DNA of 64,000 nucleotides from Sphagnum compactum (GCA_965153455.1 OZ234493.1:27394213-27458212); one strand, 5' to 3'; positions 13,451 to 40,211 are shown, counted from the first letter of the stretch. Notes: generated from the sequence alone by a model not told the origin. Made by a program: numbers and translations.

Positions 13451-15519
13451 TTAAAATTTTGTACTTTACTCTTGGTCTTGTAGTCAAATTTGGGTAGGGC
13501 AGATAGGCTGGTGAGCGAACAATTAAGAACTCAAAAGGAGGTCCAATCCTCACACATTGTTCCTATGCTTCTGAAGCTCAAAGAACATTTGTCACCCTCT
13601 TCTTAGTGCTTCCAACATTGCAAAAAATTGCTCAATTTAGTAAAGGGAGAAATATGAGGGTGTTTGGTGTAAGGGGGTTTAGTGTTTTGGTCATGAGTGA
13701 ATTTAAAACAGGTCAGAATTTAAAACAGGCCCAAAAAAACCCCTGGTTGGTAAAAAAACACCTGGTAGGTAGGTAGGTACTATCTACCTACCTAGTAGAG
13801 AGGCATGAGGCTGAAGACAAGAGCCACACACAGACACACACATGTGCAGTGAACATCACTCCTTTCCTTCCTTCCTTCCTTCCTTCTTTCCTGCTCAAAG
13901 ATTCTTGTCACTTGCAGCAGAGCCTGCCTGCCTGCCTGCCTGCCTGCTAGTGTTTTGTGAAGAAAAAAGAGATTGGGTTTGATTGCAACTGGCCCATGAA
14001 CCCCTCCTTCCCTTGTGGATCACGCATTGAGTCCGCAGAATCTGCAGTTTCGGGAACAAACCCAGCACAAATTGTTCCCCATCTCCCGGCTTTTTCTGCA
14101 TCTCTTTTTGAACCGTATCGTCTGTGTGTCAAGATCCAAGTCCTGTGGGACGTCCAGGATGATAATAATATCCAGATGATCAATCCCTGCCCACATTTTA
14201 TTAAAGAAAAAAAGCGCCAATCCCGAAGGGAAAGTGATGGGGGAAAAAAGAAAAAGAAAAGAGAGATCCAAAGTCTTAAGAAATGAAATTATTCTTGTTT
14301 TTCTTGTTCTAGTTCTTCCTCCTCCTTCCTTTTTCCATTGTGTTTGTTGCTGCTGATAATATTCTGAAGGAGCTTTCAAGTCTTCCTTTTGTGTTTGTTT
14401 GTTTGTTTTTTTTTTTTGGGGGTTGTTTGGGTGTCCAATTCTGCAGGCCAGTCAGTGCCTCTTCTCTAGCTAACTCTATCTCCGTCTTTTCCTTTATGGG
14501 TGGGGTTTGGAAAAGAAAAAGTAAGTAACTAGAACTTGGATGTGCGAAATATTTTTTTGTTGCAGGGGTCACATACTGAGTGAGCACCACCTCTGGAGAT
14601 GCTCTTTTTAGGCATCATCTTGTCATGTGCTTGCAGGAGTGATCATGCTACAAACTCGACACTGAGTTTGCCTGTGAAATTCGTCATGTTGGGCGGCTGA
14701 CAATATGAGGAAGACTTTATAACTGGAGTTGAGAAGTTCCTCTGTAGTTCCTGTTCATGGTCTACCCTCGTAAACAGAATCCATTATGAGATTTTGCTGC
14801 TACCCATCATGATATGTTTCTAGTACAAACTATGTGAAGCACATATATGGGATTTTCTAAGCTCGTTCTCTTCTTTGCTCCACTGACTAAACAAAGAAAG
14901 CCTTTTGTCTGTTGCAGAGCTGCTCTGCTGAATTCATGGTGGGATCAAGCACTACTGCATGTACTTCTGCTGCAGGAGGCAGGCGAGCGAGCTTTAGACT
15001 CTAGAAAGTAGTTGAGAGACACCCAATTACAGGAGGGAGCTTTGGGGTTTGGTCTAGCTTGTAGATCAACTGTTTTTCCTTTTCTGCTATGGAGAAACCA
15101 AAACTGGAGGAGGAGCAAGCTCCTGCAATGCCAGTGCGGTTTAGGGGGAGAGCAGCACTTCGGTCTATCCAGGTACACCAAAAAAAATCTCACATCCTTC
15201 TCTTCAACAACATTCAAAGCATTGTGTTCTAGGTTTCAAACCCAGCTGCAGCTTGAACACCGTGGATTTTTCACATGTTCTCAATATCTTCAGAAATTCA
15301 TGAAGCTGCAAGATTCACGAAGAGTTGTCTTATTTTCTTTTAGCAATTGCAACCAGAATTATGAATAATGGCAAGCTGCACCTGCACTTGTAACCCACAT
15401 GAATGTGCAGCACAATGCTTTGGGGAATGAATGAATTTCTTTCTGGATTGAATTCTACAATTAGAAATTTTATGTAGATCGGAATTCAACTGACAGTGTG
15501 ATTGATTGATTGATGGGTC

Positions 15520-17453
15520 ATGACAACATTGATCACGCATCAGGTGAAACGAGACAAGGGTTACATTCTTTGGATTTACAACATCTATCTACACGCGCTG
15601 CAGCTGTCGCTCCCATTGTTCTTTCTCATCATGCTATCCAGTCCAATCTTGTTGAGCATACCTTTCACCGGATTTTTCATGCTGGATATCGAAGGGTTAT
15701 ACATCCCTGCAGATGCTCAAAGGCCAGAGTCAAATCGCGGAATTATCAGCAGCAGCTGGTCATGGTGGAACAACAACAACAGCAGCAGCAGCAGCAGCTC
15801 CTTGGACCAGACTCCTGCTGGATTAACAACAGCTGAGATGTGTTTCAAAGTCTTCATTTTCAGTTTGTCTTTATCAACTACATTTGGTGGCACTCGGGTG
15901 GAAGCACGCTCACCGTATGCTCTTCTCTTGGCCAATTTGAACACGTTGCTGGCTCAGCTTATCTTTGTGTTCCTCAGTGGTGCAGGTATGGTGGATGTGC
16001 ACTTCTAGACCATGGCAGTTATTTGATTTTTTTTCAATTTTTGTGAGTCATGATTATACATAAAAAACTATTTGTTAGATTCTTTTGAGAGCCATGAACC
16101 TTAATTACCCGCTTGATAGCTGCCAGGGGTTTGTGAATGCATATGATAACCACCCAACATTGGTTATGAGTGCACTACTAACATTGTCATGTTTGAACTT
16201 TCTATTAATTGTAGTTTTAAAGATTTGTTTCTCAGCAATTTCATAGATACATGGAATTTTGGCCAGTGCCCTAGCTACTTCACTGAATTCAAAACTTGTG
16301 TTGTTTTTATTGTCAACACATAATGATAAACAACTGCTGCCTAACCTGATAAAAGGGTGATGTCCAGTGCAGTGTTTCACAGGCTATCACAACCTAGAGA
16401 ACCAGTTCGGTGGTCCAAAGTTGCACTCATAACCAACGACATGTTCTCGGTGGCTGAGGCAAGAAACCAAAACAATAAGGGCACTGCAAACGCAGAGACA
16501 AAAGACCAACCTCATCAGCCTGGCAACACCTACAAGTACAATCCTATATCTTCTTTTGTTGCACATGAATCTTGTGACTGGCATGAGAACTATGTCATTA
16601 TAGCTTGCTGAGGAGCTCCTGATGTTGGTTTTTCATAAGCCTTTGGGAAGTTAATACAAAGCCTTTTTTTCTCTGTCTGTTTTTTGTGGATGTATTTTAT
16701 TTCTCTGTTTGAAAATCAAGATTTTTCTTCCAATGTGGGTGTGCAGATCTTTCATGATGCGACTGAATCTGATGGACCCAAAACAGGTGATACTTATAGA
16801 ATGCAAATTTGAGTTGACGTATAGACGCTTTCTTACCGAAAATGGGAACCCAGCTCCGTTCATCAATCATGTGTCATTGAAATTGGTGCGACCTGAAGTT
16901 GCTTACTTGAAGTATGGCTTAGTTGTGCGGCATATTATTGATGAGGAAAGTCCTTTGTATGGCATGGATCTTGAGGTACTCCCAAAACCTCTCACCAGAT
17001 TGTTGTTAAATTCAATTTTGTTTGGATTTTCTGTTGCAATCAGTTTTGTAACATTTTGGAATGATTTTATTTCAAGGAATGGTGACTTTTATTCCCATGA
17101 AATCCTCCATGAAAATCTAAATCTGACTTTGGGTAATATGATTTGTTGCTTGATATTTGTTACATTGTACATACAGCATTTGCATGTATTGTTATCTGTT
17201 GCTAATTATGTGACCCAACTTGTTTCTCAAAATATATTTTCAGGAACTTAATTCTCGAGATGCATCCTTCACTATTACCATATCTGGTATTGAGCGCTCA
17301 TCAATGCAACCTGTATTTAGTGAGAACCTTTACACTGTCTATGATGGTGAGGTTTTGTGGGATCGCCAATTTCAGGACCAAATTATAACAGATAGACACG
17401 GCCATTCCTTGTTTGACTGCAACTTGATTGATCAATTAAAACCCATGAAATGA
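15520..17453 (+). CDS. Inward-rectifier K+ channel superfamily protein (Kir/KirBac fold), 355 aa, non-canonical pore; exons 15520-15985, 16373-16535, 16747-16975, 17244-17453
   Basis: Three GT-AG introns with matching phases (1, 2, 0) give 1068 nt in one frame. Slide helix/TM1 YNIYLHALQLSLPLFF; pore helix/filter FIFSLSLSTTFGGT; TM2 ending SGAVFHRLSQP; cytoplasmic IRK-C motifs FMMRL, RHIIDEESPLYG, ISGIERSSMQ and EVLWDRQFQD, matching Kir/KirBac consensus (GxxFxxxSxP, HxIDxxSPL, EILWGHRF). Confidence 0.9.
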
Positions 17454-20400
17454 GTGATCAGACTACCCCATAGGAATCATTTCAATAGCTTTTCACTTAC
17501 TAAATTTTCTGGACCTACATTTGACAAGGTTTGGCCTATCGATACTCGTGCGGCTGTTGAAGAGGATGAGTTATAATCAAAGCAAGATGCAAAAAAATTG
17601 CATGTGTATGCATGGAAGCCAGAAATTTTCCCACAAAATGATGTCAAAATCTTGGATTGTTCAACGTTGGATGCTTCCCAATTTGAGAATCATGCCACCC
17701 TTCCAACCTTCGTTCCAGTAGAGACAACAACTCTGGACTGTGTTCATAGAATGCCTTTTTGGTAGTCTAGATGTCAAGATCATTTGTATGAGATAGTGTA
17801 ATTGATCTTACACAAAACTGTGCATATTATTGTGTTCATGTCCAAGGTCATAGTACTATTGAAGAGAATAGAGTGTCTGGATTCCACCATGTTGGACAAA
17901 ATTACAGAATGAAAAGAAGAATTACTCAATGAGATGGAAACAATTTGAAATATTAGAGACTTTGGATACTGAATTACTTAGATGTGCATGTTTTGCCCAA
18001 TCTTGGAGGACCTTGCGGAATGGTTTTTTTGCGGTTGAATTGAGTATATGCCAAATCCCACAAGAATTGAAAGTAAAACACCACAAGAGGGAAAAAGCCC
18101 ATCATTGGATGGGTGATCAACTAAGTGGAAGTGTAATGTTGCAACCTACAGAGCTCACCTTCAAGAGGAATTTGCAATACTTCCAACATGGCAAAGAGCT
18201 TATTGGGTTGTGCTGATTTTGCATAGTGTTGAAGGTGTTTTCTTTTGTGTTGGGAATGATCTCTCATGAAGTAGTAGTTGCACATACAAGGAGAGGAGCA
18301 ATGCATTGACTTTTAGTCCACATGGACAAAGCATTGTGATCTAATGGACCTTACACTATGTGTGCTACAAGATTGTGTGTGGTTTTCAATCTTATGTTTT
18401 TACACTTCGGTTTGTAAAAGTCTCCAATAACTTCAAGCTTGGTTCTATTCTTAGTTGCAATCACAAAAAATATGGTACAAATGTTAACTTTCTTAGAATC
18501 ATTTCCATGAAGCTATTGCTCAAACAAGATCAACTACGAATTGTCGTGTACCAATGTAAACATGAAATTGCCAATCAAATTTCATGGAATTGGTGAAAGT
18601 TGAAGTCATCAAGTGTAGAGACATAGTTTGACATTTTATCCAAGTTGAAAATTAACTTTTGAAGTTCTATTGCAAATTGAATTGTAGTATAAGTGACAAG
18701 TTCAATTGTTAACAAGAGAATTGGTTAAATTTGTACAAAATGGTGGGCTAGCTTCCAATGAGAAATGAAACACTTGTCAAGATTATAAATTCATTGGATG
18801 GGTAGGAGTCACAACATGAATGATTCCTTTTTGAGTTGTGACATGAATGAAATTGGAAAATAAAGTCTTTTCATCATGCAATTATTTTCTTTGCATGTGC
18901 TTATGTTTTAATATTTTTCCCTTGTTGTCAAGCAATGTTATTGTGAATTCATCACTAAATTAGGGTTCCAAAGCTTGTAATTCTTATTCGAACATGGATT
19001 GCACCAATTAGTTATACCATGTCATGACTTTTGTATTCAAGCAACTTTTTTTTTGTTAAACACTCTTGAAGTCAAACTCCGGAAACTTGCTTCTTAAGAA
19101 AGTTTTGCCTTTGAGGTCATGATTCTTCCTTTATATTTTTGTTCAAGCCACAATCATAGTTTACTACTTTTCACACCAAATATCCAATCATCCTTTGATT
19201 GTGGTTTTGTCCTATTAGAAGGCTCATCTTGTAGTGGTTTGATGCCTTTTACTCTTGTAATTGTGGTGGTTTTGGTTAAATTGCATCTCCATCATTGATG
19301 GGGATTTTTTTTTTTGGCACAATCTCAAACTTCAATTTGGTTTCCAATAAATATTTGCTTACATTGCATTTTGTGATATTGAAAGATATCTCTTTATGGT
19401 CCTCTAGAAACAACAAAGGGTTGAGATTAGATTGCCAACCTACACTAACATTAATTTTCTCTTTTGTGTAGGATCATATTTGTAAATATATTGTATAACG
19501 GTGTTTTTGTAGTGAATTTTTGCCATTTTGTCAAAAAGATTTTTGGAAAAGGAATATTCTTTTTCAAATTCCCTGTGTTTTGGGAAAAAAATTGTTCAAA
19601 AACTAAATTAAAAATTAAAAATTGCCACAACTACCTAAAAACATGAAAGGGTGCTTAAATTTTTTTATAAATTTGTTTATTCATATTTCAAATATAGCCA
19701 AATTGGGTGAAATATTCTTATGGATGATTGCTACTTGAGCAACATCCCAAAATTGAAAACATAAAAGAAAAAGCAAGGCTATCAAGTAAAACATTTGTGG
19801 CAATTAAATAAGCTTCTTTCATTTGAGGATTTTGTATTTTTTTTGGGTAGAAAATGTGAGATGGATAGTCCCATATGTGGTATTGAGAGGCACATTTTGT
19901 TTTGAAGTCTTGGGACCTCTTGTAAATTTTTAGTTTATTTTTAAAATTAAAACATGAGGAAGAATATTTTACCAACTAATTGTCAACAATTTTTAGCACC
20001 AAGGGTTGGAATGTACTATGTCAGGCATGTTCCACCTTGGAACCCGTTGAGCCATGGTTTTTTTGGGTGGCAAATTTTTTGCATTATTTTTCGACCCGAA
20101 AATAATGATTTCGACACATACAAAGGATTTTTGTGGGAAAAAAATGGCATCACAGAGCCAGATTTTGAAATTTAATTAAACTTAAAATAGGTTCCAGAAA
20201 ATAGCCAAAATATAATATGATTATTTTTAAAATTACTTTCATATAATCTGGCTATAGCCAAATTTGGCTAAATCTTCTTCTAGAAATTTCCCATATTGGC
20301 TATATCACCCCCCCCCCCAAAATTAGAAAAAAACACTTGGTCCCACCTAAGGAAATGCCTAAGAAAAGTACTTGAATAAGACACCAAAATGGATCATGTA

Positions 20401-20671: not shown

Positions 20672-23449
20672 TTTTGTGAAGATGGGGGGTGAAGAGGCAA
20701 AAGAGGAACTACTAGTGAAACTAGCAACGTCCATCCGCTACGGATCCATTGGATGTCTGTTATGACTTAGTTGTGGATGAATGGCAACTGAGTCAATACC
20801 TGGTTTCATCTTGGTAACCCATTTGTAAATAGGTCCTATGTATAGGTAGATAGGTAGGAAAATCGGTGACTAGGTACTAGTTAAGTAGATTGGTTTGTAT
20901 TTTGTACATTATGTAAGGGCTGTTTTTACTACCTACCTACCTACTAATGACCTGCACGCAGGCTGAAAATAGGTAGGTAGTAAAAAAAGCAATGGAGCTT
21001 TTCTAGTACCTACCTAGTTACAGCCTCGGGTCATACTAGCCTCATAGGGTTCTTGATACCAATGTTGATACCATTGTTGATAGGATGTTAAATCAGCAAA
21101 GGGGCCTAGTTGCGGGCAATATGAATGAATTTCATCCGTATTGAGCTGATTCTTGTCTTCTTTTTTTTCCCCCCCTAGCTGCCCATTTGCCCATCCAAGA
21201 TGTGTCTGATAATAGGGCATGTTTTGGATCTTCTTCCCCTACACTACACTACACCTAATGTCCATTATAGGCCCCAAAAAACATGCATAACATGGAGCCA
21301 AAATTTTGTGCTGGGCAGCATACATCTTAAGAGAAAGATGGGATGGGGCTATGGGCAGACAGTGAAAAAAAGAAGAAATGCAGCACTACTTTTGTATTAT
21401 TGCCATTTAGGACCATTGTCTTCTTCTGTGTTAGATGCCATGCACATGTCTATAGTCTATACCAAATTGAAACTACCAAACCAACTTAAACATAGTACTT
21501 TGTACTTAAAAAAGTTCTAGAAGTATGTAAGGGGAGGGAAATGATTTGATATTCCTCTCAATTCAAAGATCTACTCCATTCTTTATGGATCTCATTTTAT
21601 TTCCTACGAGTGTTATTTTTTTGGTTCAATTAGATTTAACTAGTCTTATGTTAAGGAATACAAATTGTTATATACGAAGTGATTTGAGGCAATTTGAAGA
21701 GCAATTATATTTTAAAACTAAGTAAAAGTTAGTGTAAATATCATGGAATGGAACCTTGCATATTTTGCATCTTTAATATTTTGCGTGATGATTTTTTTGG
21801 GACATGGGCCCTTCACATTGCTGTCGTTATGTTATGTTTGTTTCATGAGTACATTGCAAGCCGAAAGACACACAATGTATTTATTTAACGTGAAAGAATT
21901 TTCCATAATGCACTATACTTTGTGTATTGAACCATACGTTAAAAAGGACCATGTGACCCATGTGGGCCAGCACCCACCAGTGCACCATCCATTGGAAACC
22001 CTTTATGACTTAGTTGTGGGTAAATATCAGTGTTGGGCAGGTATCAAAAATTTGACCCATGTATCAGCTGGGTATCAGCTGGGTATTACGTGGGTATCAA
22101 CCCTTGAACACTTGAGAATATCATATTTTTGTGATATCTGAACAGATATTGAATCCCTGGATATCAATTTGTGTGAGAATCGACCCTGAAATTTTTTGGA
22201 CCCTTTTCACACCTTTCAAAATGTTGATACCCAGGGTGAGATAAAAGGGGTGAAAAAGGGTCAGGATATCAGGTTTAATTCTTGGCTATTGGTGTGAAAG
22301 AGGAAGCCCCCAATCAGGTGCTGAAATTTTAAATCCTTTGCGAAAACCAGATCCGATGATTATTATCTTTTTAAAATCATACCACCCAACAACACTGGGA
22401 AGTATCATAGGTAGGTAAGTAAGTAAGTAGGGAGCATAAGAGCATCCTCCAGCCCCCGTGCTCTGCAGATGTTCTGCACAGTAAAATTGGATGAACAAAA
22501 GTCAAAACATGCCGGTTTAGCTAAGGAACATTGGTTTTGACTCGTCATGATTGTCGAATTTACAGTGCCTGGTGAAAGGGGGCAGCAACATTGTGCACCT
22601 GCAGAAACGAGTGTAATAAATAGGATCTGACTGCTTGCTGCTCAGTATTTCCGATTGGCCCATCATACTGATTCGTCCAGGTGGTTTGCTATTTGTAGTT
22701 CCCCCACCTATTTGCTGTCCCAGTTTTATGGGTGGGATTGAAAAAAGGGGGGAAAAAAACTAAACTTGGATGTGAAAAATATATTGGCAGGGTCACATAC
22801 TGAGCACATGCCTGAAGATGCTCTAAGCAGGTAAAAGCACTGGATGATTACTAGGTAACTTATACATGTATGTGGATGGTTAATTAGTACATAGCTAACC
22901 ACTGTGATTAGCTAAATGGAACAGGAATTAACAATGAAAAACTTTCATGTCCACACATCATCCATCTTGCATGGTGTGTTGGTGGGAGCTGGCTGGATTC
23001 ACTTCTCTTCGGCCTTCTAATCTTGTGTTGTTGCAGCATGTGCGTAATGCCCGTACTGGAATACTAGGGCAAATTAGGTAACACATTGTGTGTGGGGGAC
23101 TATTATATATATGCGGTGCACACAACAATGCCTGCAAGTGTTGTGCTTGCCCTTTATATTATACGTATTTGGTATGGTCCATATCTTCCACCAATTAGTG
23201 GCCAACCGCATATCACCTAAGCTGGCACACCCAATAACAAATGTTGAGGAGTAAGAGTGATCTAATGTTCAACAACCCATTCAACCAGACACAAACAGGT
23301 TGGTTACAAAGGAATGGAAACAATGATTGCCAAGGGAAAGGGGTCCACAACTTACATGCTGCTGCTTGCTACTAAGGTGAGGTGATCTCAAACTTCATTC
23401 AATCTGTGGTGTTGACCAGTAGTGTTGGGTGGTTGGTTCTCTCTTTTTT

Positions 23450-24734: not shown

Positions 24735-25538
24735 AAAGTGTGAACAACCATGGCGAGAGCAGCTTCACCCCTTCTCAGTGCTCCGTACGTATGTGGCCCT
24801 GCAATAGTATTTCTCACATCCAAGATTTTGTTATTTATTTATTCACAACCTCATCCATAAAACTAAAATTGGGACTACAAAAAGGTGAGAGACTACTAAT
24901 AGCAACCCATATGGACCAATCAAACCATCTGGCCAAAATCTACAACAGATTATGTATTATTAATGTACACCTACTAAATAGGTTTGGTAATTTTTTTGTG
25001 TGCTAAAAGATTGCCACCCAACTAAGTTGCACGTATGAAAACATTCACATAAATTATTTCACTTCTAAAGTAAAGGTCCTTTTACACCAAATAGTCAACT
25101 CCACAATTGAATAGGACATAATGTGGTAAAATAATTTATGAATTTGGTATGATGAGATCAATAGATGAAGTGTAATGTGGGTTCAATTCCTTGTGTTTGA
25201 CTAAATTGTTGCATGTGTCATGCACCAAAATATTAACACTTACAACTATCATTATGCACACACATAAATCATCCCAAATGGCACCTTACTTCCAAATCAT
25301 CTTCATATATATGGGGTTAAGGTCCCTCTCAACCAAATAATAATATAAAAAATTTGTTTAGTAAATCCATTGAGAGTGAACACTTTGGATTCAAGGTGGG
25401 AAGATTAGTAGGATAGGTGCAAATGTGAGCCTCATTATTAGTCATTTAGTTGTAATCCTCCCAAATCCTCAACCAAATGTGAATCATCATCAAGAAAAAC
25501 TTAATATATTCCTACTATCTACCTATAGGAATAGGTAC

Positions 25539-36300: not shown

Positions 36301-38621
36301 CTTTAAACAAAAAGGAAATTGAGCTTCAATTTATTTTTTCAAAAGTGCCTGTAAAGAAAACGGGCAACAAGATAGGTAGATATTGATGGAACAATATGAT
36401 AACTTAAGTGCAATAGAGTTTTCTTTTTTTGGGTAAAGTAACTCGAACATGGGGCTAGAACCCTATGTTTGCCCCATTTAGAGGGTGAGATTGAAAACAC
36501 GATGGTAAAAAAATTTACACACTATTGCAATGAGGGGGGCGAAACTCATTTTCACACCCAAACTTGGCATGAAATAAGTAGTTTCATGCTGAGTTGTTGT
36601 GCTTGGACGTCGCAAAACACATGCCTCTTTCATTCATGCTATTGCCATTGTTGCTTGACACCAAAGACGTCATGTTGTTGTGTCATGCGTGCTATTGTGT
36701 GTGGCGCTCCAATGAGCAAGTGAGTTGTTACAAGTCCATAAACAAGTGAGTTGTTGCAAGTGCAAGTGAACGATGCAAAAGTTTGTGCCCTCTCTCCACA
36801 CAATTTTTTTAATTAAAAAGTTTTTAGTGCTTAGTTTGTAGACAACAACAACAAGAGGAGTTTGCAATGGGCAACTCGAGCCCCCCTCCTCTCCACCCCA
36901 TTTTTTTGTTTTATTTTTGTGCTTCGACAAATGACCATGACCACAAACAATCTCATGCCAGGTTTTCCCTTTTTGGTCCCCCTTTTTTTTTATGACTTTG
37001 TGAATGAGGAACAAGAGGGGGATAAGGAACCAAACCACAATCCCATGCCGGGTTTGCCCTCTTTGGTCTGTTTTTTTTTAAGGAATTTGCAGATGAGGAG
37101 CAAGAGGGGATGAGGAACCAAACAGCAGTCCAGAGAGGGGACCAACAGGGCACCACTTTAAGCAAAACTCTAACAGGTACAAAATAATAGTGAAAATGCC
37201 AAAGGATTGATTGGTGATATGAGCTAGTAATTTGTTGTTGACAAATTTTGTCATTTTTTGGACAAAGAAATTGGGATTTTTTTGGATACCTTTTTTTTAC
37301 CCTAGTGTAAATTTGAGTAAATTTGCTCTTTTCTTGGGAAAATTTGGCCGATTTTTTATATTAAAAATTGAAAAAAATTACTCACAGTACTCAAATTTTC
37401 ACTAAATTTTTTTTCCCCAAAAACTTCCCAATTTCTTTGTCAAAAAAATTGGCAAAATTTTGGCAGAAAACAAAAAAAGCTTGAGTTGCATATGATATTA
37501 TAAAATCATATGCTGAAGTTAGTGGAAATGATGAAACTTTGAGTTGAAGGATGACAAGTTACGGCCTACATAATTCAAATTCCGCCTCCATCATTCCTCT
37601 CAAATCCACAACTGCTCAACACTGGTAGGTTTGAAACCCCGAATTTCTTTGATACTTTTTTTTTCCCCCTTTTTTTTTTCCCCCAATAAATCAGAACAGA
37701 CTATGTTACTAACTCTGTGAGATTCTGAGAATATTCTGAAATACTCATGGTTATCAGCAAAATCAAATACCCACCCAACCACGCTGGTAAGTCTGAAATG
37801 ACAAGAGCGGGCAGTTCTTAAATTCTCTCCCTCTTTTGTTTTTTGTTTTTTTTTTCCCCCTTCTTTTTTTCCTTTCAAAACAGCAGAAACCGATTTGCTC
37901 TGCGATTCTGACCCATTCTTTTTTTTTTGAAGGTCTGGAGCCGACGGTTATCATAAAAATACCCGCCCACCACTGGCAGGTGCTAGGTGGGTGCTAGGTA
38001 GGTAGGTAAGAAGAATGGGTACGTAGGTCAGTAGGTAGGCAGGTAAGGAGTAGGGACGCACTTTCGGTGGAGTGTGGAATCGCTGTTGCATCAGTCTTGT
38101 CGTGTAGGAAGGAAGGGAGGAAGGAAGAAGTGCTACACATGAAGACGAAGAAGAGGAGGAGGAGGAAGAGGAGGTCCCAACAAAGGGGCTGTTTCTCTGA
38201 TGAAGAAGAAGAAGAAGGAGAAGAATCTCATCAGCAGCAGCAGCAGTGGCACACATCAATCCTTCGACGCAGTAGTAGTAGTAGTAGTAGTAGACTTGGG
38301 GAATTAGCGGAGCTGCATTAAGGAGGGAAGCAGCAGTTGTAGGAGAGATTTTCCGACATGAGCTTTTGTTGATTTGAGAATGCAGAACTGCAGGTAGTTA
38401 GTTTCTTGTAGGTGGCTTAGCAGATGCGGAGTGAGTCGTCTCTCGATTATCATCAGCTTGATGGGTAGCTAGCTGCCTTGTGAAGTTCGGATGCTGTTGT
38501 AGCTAACGCGTTCGAATGATCGCTGGTGAATGAGAGAAGATCAAGCTCGAGAATTAGCTCGAGAATTGAGTTGCATCTGTGGCTCATGCTGTTGCTGCAG
38601 TGATCGGTGAAGTTCGGATAT

Positions 38622-40211
38622 ATGGGTATTTCATGTAAAGCGCATTCTTCTGGCCAGTTAGTCACCGCGAGTGATTTCATGAAAAGTTCGACTTCTTCCT
38701 GTGCTGCAGAGCTGCAGTGCCCGGCCTCAAAGAAAAAGTCTAGTGTGAAGAAGAATCTTGAGTTGTTCAAATACAAGGATCTGGAGGCAGCAACAGGAGG
38801 CTTTGCGGAGGCGAATCGGATAGGCACATCCAGCTGCCATGGCGAACTGTATAAGGGAAGATTGAGCGATGGAAGGGTGGTGACAGTGAAGAGGCCGTCG
38901 ACATCGTCCAGCCTTGAGCTTGCAGCAGCAGGACGACGGCGGTCGACGTTGTGGCAACAGGATGAAGACGCATTCGAGAACGAAGTGGAGATTCTCACCA
39001 AAGTTTTCAGTAGACGACTAGTGAACTTGCTGGGATACAACCAAGATGCAGCCGGAAAGGTGAAACTCTTGGTGGTGGAGTTTATGGAGAACGCAAGCTT
39101 GCATTCACAGCTTCATACCAAAAGCAGCAGCGATGTCGAGGAGCATCACAGTCGTCCCGCTCCGCCGTCGACGACCACTTTGTTAAGCTGGCCCCTTCGC
39201 GTTCATCTCGCTCTTCAGACGGCGAAAGCTCTCCGTGCTCTTCACTCTTCTTCTCCTCCAATTGTGCACCGCAACATACGCGCAATGAACGTGTTCATAG
39301 ATCGAAACTGGAATGCAAGACTCGGGGAGTTCGGATTTGCTCGCCATGTCTTGCAAGACACAGAAGAAGATTTACTAGTTGCAGCAGCAGCTGCAGTTCC
39401 CAGTCCGCGAAAAACCCATTTGTCTTCCATCCCTGAGAGCATGAGCTGTGAGCCTGCTGCTGAAAGCTGCTACGATCATAAGTCTAACTGCAGAAGCTGT
39501 ACTGCAGATCAGTGCAGTGCCGGCAGCAGCGGATCTGCTGCAACTGTTTTCAGGACGCTTGAGACCGATGTGTTGAGCTTCGGCGTGCTCTTGTTGGAGA
39601 TCATTACTGGGAAGAACGCGATGTCGCAGAATCCGGATTGCAGTTTATCCAGTCTCATCGACTGGGCCTTGCCACTGATCAAGCAGGGAAACACTTTGGC
39701 AATCTGCGATCCTCGGATTCGCCTTCCCCCGCCCTTGTGCATCCCGGCTTTGAACCACATGGCAACCATTGCTGCTCGCTGTTTGCTTCGACCAACGTCT
39801 ACAGGCCGCTCCAGCAGCAGCTTGAAGCAGCAGCAGCAGCAGCCGAGCATGAGTGAAGTGGTGGAAGTGCTCACGAAGGTTAGCAAGCTTATCCCTCTGC
39901 CTCTATGGAATGGTCCTTCTACAAGAGTCGTGAAGTCCTGCATGCCGGATCAACAGACTCAACCCAGCAGCTGCTTTGTCATCGGACTCGACACTCGAGC
40001 CTTGAATTGTAGAATTGGGAGACTCATCAGGTTACCCTTGTGGGTCGGATTCTTGAAAATAAAAAACAAGGAAAACAGCAGCAGCAGCAACAACAACAAC
40101 AACAACAGCAACAAGGCTGTGGTCAAGCTTGCAGGACAAGCTGGGAAATCCATATCTAGTAGCTGCAACTTCATCAAGCTTGCAGGACAAGGTTTGCGAA
40201 TCCATATCTAG
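38622..40211 (+). CDS. Receptor-like cytoplasmic kinase-like protein (At3g51990/At5g23170, CRINKLY4-related type), predicted pseudokinase, 529 aa, intronless
   Basis: First ATG at 38622 gives MGISCKA (Gly2/Cys, acylation-type N-terminus). FKYKDLEAATGGF, VTVKRP, FENEVEIL, LVNLLGY, LLVVEFM, SWPLRVHLALQTA, DVLSFGVLLLEIITG and IAARCL identify an RLK/Pelle kinase domain. Catalytic HRD reads HRN and DFG reads EFG. Confidence 0.88.
   Translation: MGISCKAHSSGQLVTASDFMKSSTSSCAAELQCPASKKKSSVKKNLELFKYKDLEAATGGFAEANRIGTSSCHGELYKGRLSDGRVVTVKRPSTSSSLELAAAGRRRSTLWQQDEDAFENEVEILTKVFSRRLVNLLGYNQDAAGKVKLLVVEFMENASLHSQLHTKSSSDVEEHHSRPAPPSTTTLLSWPLRVHLALQTAKALRALHSSSPPIVHRNIRAMNVFIDRNWNARLGEFGFARHVLQDTEEDLLVAAAAAVPSPRKTHLSSIPESMSCEPAAESCYDHKSNCRSCTADQCSAGSSGSAATVFRTLETDVLSFGVLLLEIITGKNAMSQNPDCSLSSLIDWALPLIKQGNTLAICDPRIRLPPPLCIPALNHMATIAARCLLRPTSTGRSSSSLKQQQQQPSMSEVVEVLTKVSKLIPLPLWNGPSTRVVKSCMPDQQTQPSSCFVIGLDTRALNCRIGRLIRLPLWVGFLKIKNKENSSSSNNNNNNSNKAVVKLAGQAGKSISSSCNFIKLAGQGLRIHI

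Follow-up and report, generated by a model that had tools for sequence, protein, structure and literature searches.

Our analysis of a genomic stretch from Sphagnum compactum indicated that it carries an expressed gene for a member of the Kir/KirBac (IRK-C) superfamily in which the K+ channel signature T-x-G-Y-G is replaced by T-F-G-G-T. The stretch, called the window below, is the whole 64,000 nucleotides of DNA that were analysed (GCA_965153455.1, OZ234493.1:27394213-27458212); it is AT-rich eukaryotic DNA (GC 0.37), and all positions are counted from its first letter. The coding sequence lies on the plus strand at 15089-17453. The gene belongs to a family of three old clades and is not a lone odd copy, and throughout this family of streptophyte algae and non-flowering land plants the TxGYG signature was shown to be replaced by conserved non-canonical loops. 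An initial annotation of the window had described the protein as a Kir/KirBac homologue with a rewritten signature, and this identification was borne out.

The segment singled out by the initial annotation, 15850-15915 (+), lies inside a 164-codon open frame (15514-16008, +) that corresponds to exon 2 of a five-exon gene. In the exon 2 frame the segment reads VFIF and SLSLS, followed by TTFGGT and RVEARSP. The letters quoted by the annotation were exact, with coordinates that were a few bases off: the true span of the quoted segment, FIFSLSLSTTFGGTRVEARSPYA (23 residues, comprising the end of the pore helix, the filter and the start of the second transmembrane helix, TM2), is 15853-15921 (+), as given by the frame and by a gapless HMMER alignment to KirBac1.1. 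T-F-G-G-T itself is encoded at 15880-15894 (+) and forms residues 141-145 of the 375-amino acid (aa) model. The closest protein found was P0001, a 374-aa protein of Sphagnum jensenii that is 96-97% identical over exon 2. When P0001 was aligned by HMMER to KirBac1.1 from the Protein Data Bank (PDB), its residues 129-194 fell on residues 99-164 without a gap (10 bits), and a profile built from 46 family sequences gave a gapless pore segment in the same register. In this register S136 of P0001 stands at E106, the pore-helix Glu of KirBac1.1, followed by T139 at A109, T140 at T110, F141 at V111, G142 at G112, G143 at Y113 and T144 at G114; further along, the conserved G143, F146, R148 and P152 of KirBac1.1 have their equivalents in G173, F176, R178 and P182. 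The gapless alignment to KirBac-type channels that had been proposed was reproduced in both runs with identical register, and each of the three exchanges named with it, from the GYG Tyr to Gly, from the last Gly to Thr and from the pore-helix Glu to Ser, was seen there. The K+ signature T-x-G-[YF]-G was not found in the aligned P-loop register, where T-F-G-G-T stands instead.

The remainder of the protein matched the same superfamily. The Pfam model IRK_C (PF17655) scored 37 bits with P0001, where the cutoff is 22.5; it was above cutoff in six of eight family proteins, matched all eight at E<=1, and gave 16.5 bits (E 0.007) with exon 4 alone. The best PDB sequence matches of P0001 were to KirBac1.1 (E ~1e-8). 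With the 46-sequence family profile, residues 46-314 of the 333 in KirBac1.1 were matched at E 2e-19 and KirBac3.1 at E ~1e-16, and all 23 PDB sequences retrieved at E<=0.01 were Kir or KirBac. The AlphaFold2 model of P0001 (predicted local distance difference test, pLDDT, 85.4; predicted template modelling score, pTM, 0.71) was laid out as slide helix, TM1, pore helix, TM2 and a beta-rich C-terminal domain. Its best Foldseek matches were KirBac3.1 (E 3e-21, target TM score up to 0.82) and KirBac1.1 (0.85), and the top matches were all KirBac or Kir. The window protein is a member of the Kir/KirBac superfamily, with the full Kir layout of slide helix, TM1, pore helix, loop, TM2 and Ig-like cytoplasmic domain.

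Domain order and fold are common to the moss protein and the prokaryotic inward-rectifier K+ channels KirBac1.1 and KirBac3.1 (PDB 1p7b, 2wll and 1xl4, among others), and so are the gapless stretch from pore helix through TM2 and a cytoplasmic ID-E-x-SPL-[YF]-G motif. The moss protein differs in having T-F-G-G-T for T-V-G-Y-G and Ser for the pore-helix Glu, in an Asn/Ser-rich turret insert of ~45 residues that was modelled with low confidence, and in being encoded by a spliced nuclear gene. The animal channels Kir2.2, Kir4.1, Kir6.2 and GIRK2 adopt the same fold (Foldseek E 1e-17 to 1e-18), and the cytoplasmic domain can be recognised in them; their filter is canonical, and the sequence likeness is far weaker than that to KirBac (E 1e-5 to 3e-3 with the family profile, compared to 2e-19).

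The family was collected by an HMMER scan with exon 2 over 1.84 billion representatives, which returned 76 proteins at E<=0.001, and by two further word-based searches, which brought the total to 135 proteins; 131 segments were aligned to the family profile. The motif T[VIL]G[YF]G was absent from all 135 proteins over their whole length. Among the aligned segments, 78 carried TTFGG, 31 carried TGL[Q/E]P, which is one residue shorter, 22 carried near variants, and none carried a canonical TxG[YF]G. Streptophyte algae (Klebsormidium, Mesotaenium, Spirogloea and Closterium), mosses (three species of Sphagnum, Ceratodon and Physcomitrium), a liverwort (Riccia), lycophytes (Selaginella and Diphasiastrum), ferns (Adiantum and Ceratopteris) and gymnosperms (Ginkgo, Cryptomeria and Taxus) were represented. 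There was no angiosperm among the named members, and many matches are nameless, so a loss from angiosperms is a lead only. The database labels of members were automatic ones, either "IRK C-terminal domain-containing" or "hypothetical". Two long proteins with nine matched stretches each (P0071 and P0072) were set aside as not belonging to the family, as their alignments were confined to the low-complexity turret or took in part of the pore helix. A link between the family and flagellate sperm was considered and dropped, since the conifers Cryptomeria and Taxus and the zygnematophycean Mesotaenium, Spirogloea and Closterium carry it; conifers such as these and zygnematophycean algae are not known to have motile gametes.

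A quick maximum-likelihood tree was computed from 77 of these proteins, the other 58 of the 135 covering fewer than 250 profile positions or having more than two matched stretches; the midpoint root was used for drawing only. Three clades were recovered, with support given by the Shimodaira-Hasegawa-like approximate likelihood ratio test (SH-aLRT). Clade A (20 rows, SH-aLRT 95) contains Klebsormidium, zygnematophytes and mosses, including the orthologue of the window gene. Clade B (18 rows, SH-aLRT 97) has the TGL[Q/E]P loop. Clade C (39 rows, SH-aLRT 84) has long N-termini and TTFGGSPV as its commonest loop form (33 of the 131 segments), with bryophyte, fern and gymnosperm rows in separate subclades. 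Ceratodon was present in all three clades, and both Physcomitrium and the Sphagnum species in A and C. Several long branches were flagged in the tree, and its deep joins are unsure. Two environmental contigs (L008, 3001-3290; L009, 1643-1932) encode a further Sphagnum-like copy with 79% identity across the pore and TM2 region, probably the paralogue represented by P0002. Outside the streptophytes, a look-alike search of the Atlas gave IRK_C-bearing clusters in diatoms, chlorophytes and animals with scores of 0.93-0.95, which are leads only. One peptide-pattern scan of bacterial and archaeal genomes matched 54 stretches, none of them confirmed by tblastn, and as a single pattern it says little on bacterial relatives.

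Selection on the gene was examined with six genomic contigs from environmental samples, which matched the window across the locus at 94-97% identity and served as Sphagnum orthologues. The open reading frames (ORFs) were intact in all six, frame-breaking changes were absent, and the pore motif was identical in every one. The only indel was an in-frame one of 3 bases at 15796, in the poly-Ser run, present in four of the six contigs. The ratio of nonsynonymous to synonymous divergence (dN/dS) was 0.21-0.28, with a dN of 0.013-0.016 and a dS of 0.053-0.064, near the intron divergence of 0.042-0.057. These values demonstrate that the gene is under purifying selection, and the conservation of TTFGG among orthologues that the initial annotation had proposed for checking was found. 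Over nine members of clade A, mean identity to P0001 was 0.92 in TM2, 0.76 in the pore helix and filter, 0.63 in the cytoplasmic domain and 0.26 in the turret. In 46 family members F176, R178 and P182 were invariant and G173 was nearly so. The pore-lining parts and the gate residues were shown to be the most constrained parts of the protein. Within the turret, the poly-Ser region at 15760-15806 is a low-complexity coding repeat that was not seen in other clade members and had low model confidence.

Coding exons were placed at 15089-15172, 15544-15985, 16373-16535, 16747-16975 and 17244-17453 (+); the four introns are all GT-AG, and the product has 375 residues. The first of these exons begins at 14917 with the end of the 5' untranslated region (UTR) and runs to 15172 (ATG at 15089; 28 codons). 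Exon 2 encodes the end of the slide helix, TM1, the long Asn/Ser-rich turret, the pore helix, the filter and TM2, as assigned from the frame and the secondary structure of the P0001 AlphaFold2 model. From the gene model and spliced reads, exon 3 encodes the end of TM2, with the bundle-crossing Phe, the Arg and the Pro, and the linker to the cytoplasmic domain. Exon 4 holds the first half of the Kir-type cytoplasmic beta-domain, with the motif RHIIDEESPLYG, as placed by IRK_C and the KirBac1.1 alignment; exon 5, which ends with the stop codon, holds the second half, aligned to KirBac1.1 up to residue 309.

Expression was assessed with a poly(A) RNA run carrying the same species label (X22), in which 616 of the 645 mapped reads were at least 99% alike. 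The junctions 15172|15544, 15985|16373, 16535|16747 and 16975|17244 were crossed by 47, 28, 54 and 43 spliced reads, respectively, and depth was ~50-75 in exons and ~0-2 in introns. Nearly all reads had their first mate on the minus strand, as expected for RNA from the plus strand. An upstream splice was marked by 27 reads with a loose end just before 14917. An independent, spliced environmental transcript contig (L001) was collinear with the model, contained a 376-aa ORF and extended the transcript by a probable 5' UTR exon at 14428-14768 (+), to which its first 331 bases mapped at 94%. The 3' UTR extends at least over 17454-18245 (+), with an RNA depth of 51-65 to 17700 and L001 collinear to 18245. 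The five-exon gene is expressed, intact and correctly spliced. The earlier statement that the rest of the ORF is intact holds after splicing, with its five RNA-confirmed coding exons and GT-AG introns, and does not hold for the unspliced DNA.

Some variation was observed in the transcripts. A minor splice form uses an acceptor at 16368, 5 bases upstream of 16373; it was seen in one read of X22 and in X1 and X2, at a contig depth of 10.7 compared to 66.4. This form would shift the frame just after TM2 and is probably splicing noise or a target of decay. The X1 and X2 moss metatranscriptome contigs also carried G>A at 15896 and G>C at 15901, which would change the post-filter Arg and Glu each to Gln and leave TTFGG as it is; their differences at 15885 and 15915 are synonymous. 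In intron 3, the stretch 16635-16668 had a word depth of 316 in X1 and X2 and 153 in X18, compared to ~10-90 nearby, and contigs broke with loose ends on both sides of it. It looks like a short high-copy repeat within the intron.

Kir-domain channels with altered P-loops have been published, and the following comparisons draw on portions of the cited papers. The NirBacs (Zubcevic et al., 2015; PMC4607889) are bacterial proteins of Anaeromyxobacter and Gemmatimonas, reported from three genes and two near-identical sequences, which have Kir domains with novel P-loops, form tetramers, pass 22Na+ and were non-selective in flux assays. They share with the plant family a Kir/KirBac transmembrane and cytoplasmic architecture with a P-loop departing from TxGYG and, as the nearest precedent in function, would offer the best functional analogy for it. 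The loops differ (TTGTD in NirBac2.1 compared to TTFGG in the moss), and the plant proteins form an old and widespread eukaryotic family with conserved loops of its own. In that paper (PMC4607889) a search by terms brought up no plant homologue; the word "plant" appears there solely within the title of a cited journal. TbIRK of Trypanosoma brucei (Steinmann et al., 2017; PMC5429665) is a K+-selective channel located in acidocalcisomes; it was found by profile search and not by motif, and the BLAST searches of its authors gave no reliable matches outside trypanosomatids. Like the plant proteins it is a eukaryotic Kir homologue without the signature sequence, an example of such a protein functioning as a channel; its loop is GGYVG and not TTFGG (PMC5429665).

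The name "Kir-like" has a different meaning in plants. KCO3 is a TPK-derived Ion_trans_2 (PF07885) protein, a subunit with two transmembrane helices, one pore and a GFGD filter; it lacks a Kir cytoplasmic domain (PMC8619664, in the part covered). The window protein and its relatives match IRK_C and not Ion_trans_2: PF07885 had no match at E<=1 in the exons of the window or in eight family proteins, and the G[YF]GD filter of TPK/KCO3 has no counterpart, as G[YF]G was not found in the family. Beyond the general pore module, TPK/KCO3 and the moss family are unrelated.

With the NirBacs as a precedent, we consider it most likely, with moderate confidence, that the protein contributes one subunit to a tetrameric cation channel of the Kir superfamily in which K+ selectivity is reduced. 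Four subunits would form the channel. The filter retains T-x-G at the start, so that the inner ion sites may survive; the aromatic residue and the last glycine, on which the outer sites are built, are lost, and Ser stands in place of the pore-helix Glu. By comparison with filters of fewer ion sites, such a pore would be expected to let cations through while favouring K+ over Na+ little or not at all, and it would be gated through the conserved bundle-crossing Phe of TM2 and the Kir-type cytoplasmic domain, as in KirBacs. A four-copy model of residues 28-190 of P0001 reached an ipSAE score of 0.52, compared to 0.00 for the best control, a score that likeness to solved K+ channel tetramers may explain. 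The mark for this score was calibrated on two copies, not four, where it was reached by 21 of 30 same-chain pairs and by none of 23 single-chain proteins. Across three runs of the four-copy model, contact agreement was at least 73% and partner pLDDT at least 56; the confident contacts across copies lay in the pore helix (128-139), the filter (140-145) and TM2 (172 and 176). Two further positions of P0001, S136 at the site of the pore-helix Glu and N158 in TM2, were both invariant in the 46 members and were in contact between neighbouring subunits of the model (expected error 3.6 Å). This predicted pair may take the place of the usual Glu-based bracing of the filter.

Several points weigh against a cation channel of reduced selectivity. 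The expectation of little discrimination draws on general background, namely that channels with fewer ion sites in the filter distinguish little between K+ and Na+. The full-length Pfam, structure and complex predictions were made with P0001 as a stand-in for the spliced protein of the window. The Pfam model of the transmembrane part, IRK (PF01007), matched P0001 at 12.5 bits and P0036 at 13.8 bits, below its cutoff of 22.7, and did not match the other six of the eight family proteins; exon 2 alone matched no Pfam family at E<=1 and no channel in the PDB. The pore-domain sequence match is weak alone, and homology therefore rests on the whole protein, that is, on IRK_C, the family profile and the fold match. 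The only PDB match of exon 2 alone, a protease aligned to the Asn/Ser-rich turret (E 0.28), was of no use and was discarded. In this register not even T-x-G is kept in clade B (TGL[Q/E]P, 31 of 131 segments), so a function common to the family may not depend on a K+-channel-like filter. The initial annotation had also argued that changes in GYG usually abolish K+ selectivity. Loss of the motif alone does not imply this, as TbIRK keeps a PK/PNa >7 (PMC5429665); judged by this analogy, non-selectivity would not be predictable from the missing GYG.

The same trypanosome channel gives reason to consider that the moss protein is still a K+-selective channel of the inward-rectifier type, with T-T-F-G-G as an alternative K+ filter like GGYVG in TbIRK, which we consider unlikely. 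TbIRK rectifies inwardly without TxGYG, with a PK/PNa of ~7.3-8.3 in oocytes, and mutations of its filter glycines alter selectivity (PMC5429665); Thr-x-Gly and two glycines are still present in the plant loop, whose conservation is strong, with TTFGG exact in 78 of 131 segments. In the register of the two HMMER alignments, however, the aromatic residue, the last Gly and the pore-helix Glu are all replaced, and the different, one-residue shorter loop of sister clade B is hard to fit to one shared K+ filter geometry. A Kir-fold protein that does not conduct but acts as a sensor, a scaffold or a silent subunit co-assembling with the other two plant clades appears improbable. Heteromers are conceivable, since mosses hold members of all three clades, and the cytoplasmic domain is well conserved, but the pore helix with the filter and TM2 both exceed it in conservation and the bundle-crossing Phe is invariant, a pattern as expected from a working permeation path and gate.

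Quite improbable in our view is a selectivity other than a simple non-selective monovalent one, for example for divalent cations, NH4+, protons or anions. The P-loop is unlike any characterised filter found in the motif literature search, and the clade A filter is followed by charges (R, E and R in TRVEAR); these charges are not kept in clade C, where TTFGGSPV is commonest, and there was no positive evidence for any particular ion. The remaining explanation, a decaying K+ channel copy under relaxed selection, that is, an incipient pseudogene, has nothing in its favour beyond an unusual filter and a weak score with Pfam IRK, and it is so improbable that it was rejected. The ORF is intact, poly(A) RNA is correctly spliced, dN/dS is 0.21-0.28, and the loop has been retained from algae through mosses, lycophytes and ferns to gymnosperms. 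The case in which orthologues carry GYG and only this copy decays is excluded, with no canonical loop among the 131 segments of orthologues and paralogues.

Literature searches, whose scope did not extend to supplements and subscription journals, found no description of streptophyte IRK-family proteins, and none was present in the covered parts of PMC3410407, PMC8619664, PMC11617655, PMC4958633 and PMC4685582. A family without GYG would escape screens for that motif; in one such genome screen the term "Kir" was nowhere in the text covered (PMC3410407), and in the covered part of a plant K+ transport survey "Kir-like" referred to the TPK-derived KCO3 only (PMC8619664). True Kir-superfamily members are listed in neither of the two. 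The suggestion of a possibly undescribed plant channel type can thus be kept in part: the plant family is undescribed in the literature searched, but a rewritten P-loop in Kir-domain channels is already published for bacteria and trypanosomes, and it is therefore not a new channel type (PMC4607889; PMC5429665). A Kir scaffold with a replaced filter was known; a conserved, multi-clade streptophyte family with TTFGG and TGL[Q/E]P loops had no description in the literature searched. More tentatively, and with considerable doubt, these three ancient Kir-derived clades with two new loop designs, ranging from Klebsormidium-grade algae to gymnosperms and apparently not to angiosperms, might make up a class of cation channels so far overlooked in plants, with a role in selectivity or gating unlike that of known plant channels. 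Should the proteins conduct, mosses, ferns and gymnosperms would gain a channel class that is possibly missing from the angiosperm models, and NirBac would have a natural counterpart among eukaryotes in which to study filter replacement in a fixed scaffold. If they are K+-selective, TbIRK would be joined by a second case of an alternative K+ filter.

In the neighbourhood of the gene, part of the 5' UTR exon (14490-14580; bases 62-150 of L001) had 75% matches at 22725-22804 and 24778-24861 and possibly represents a dispersed repeat. No Pfam match at E<=0.001 was obtained for eleven other long open frames of the window. A 535-codon open frame at 38604-40211 (+) encodes a protein kinase domain (PK_Tyr_Ser-Thr, E 3e-20) and represents an unrelated neighbouring gene.

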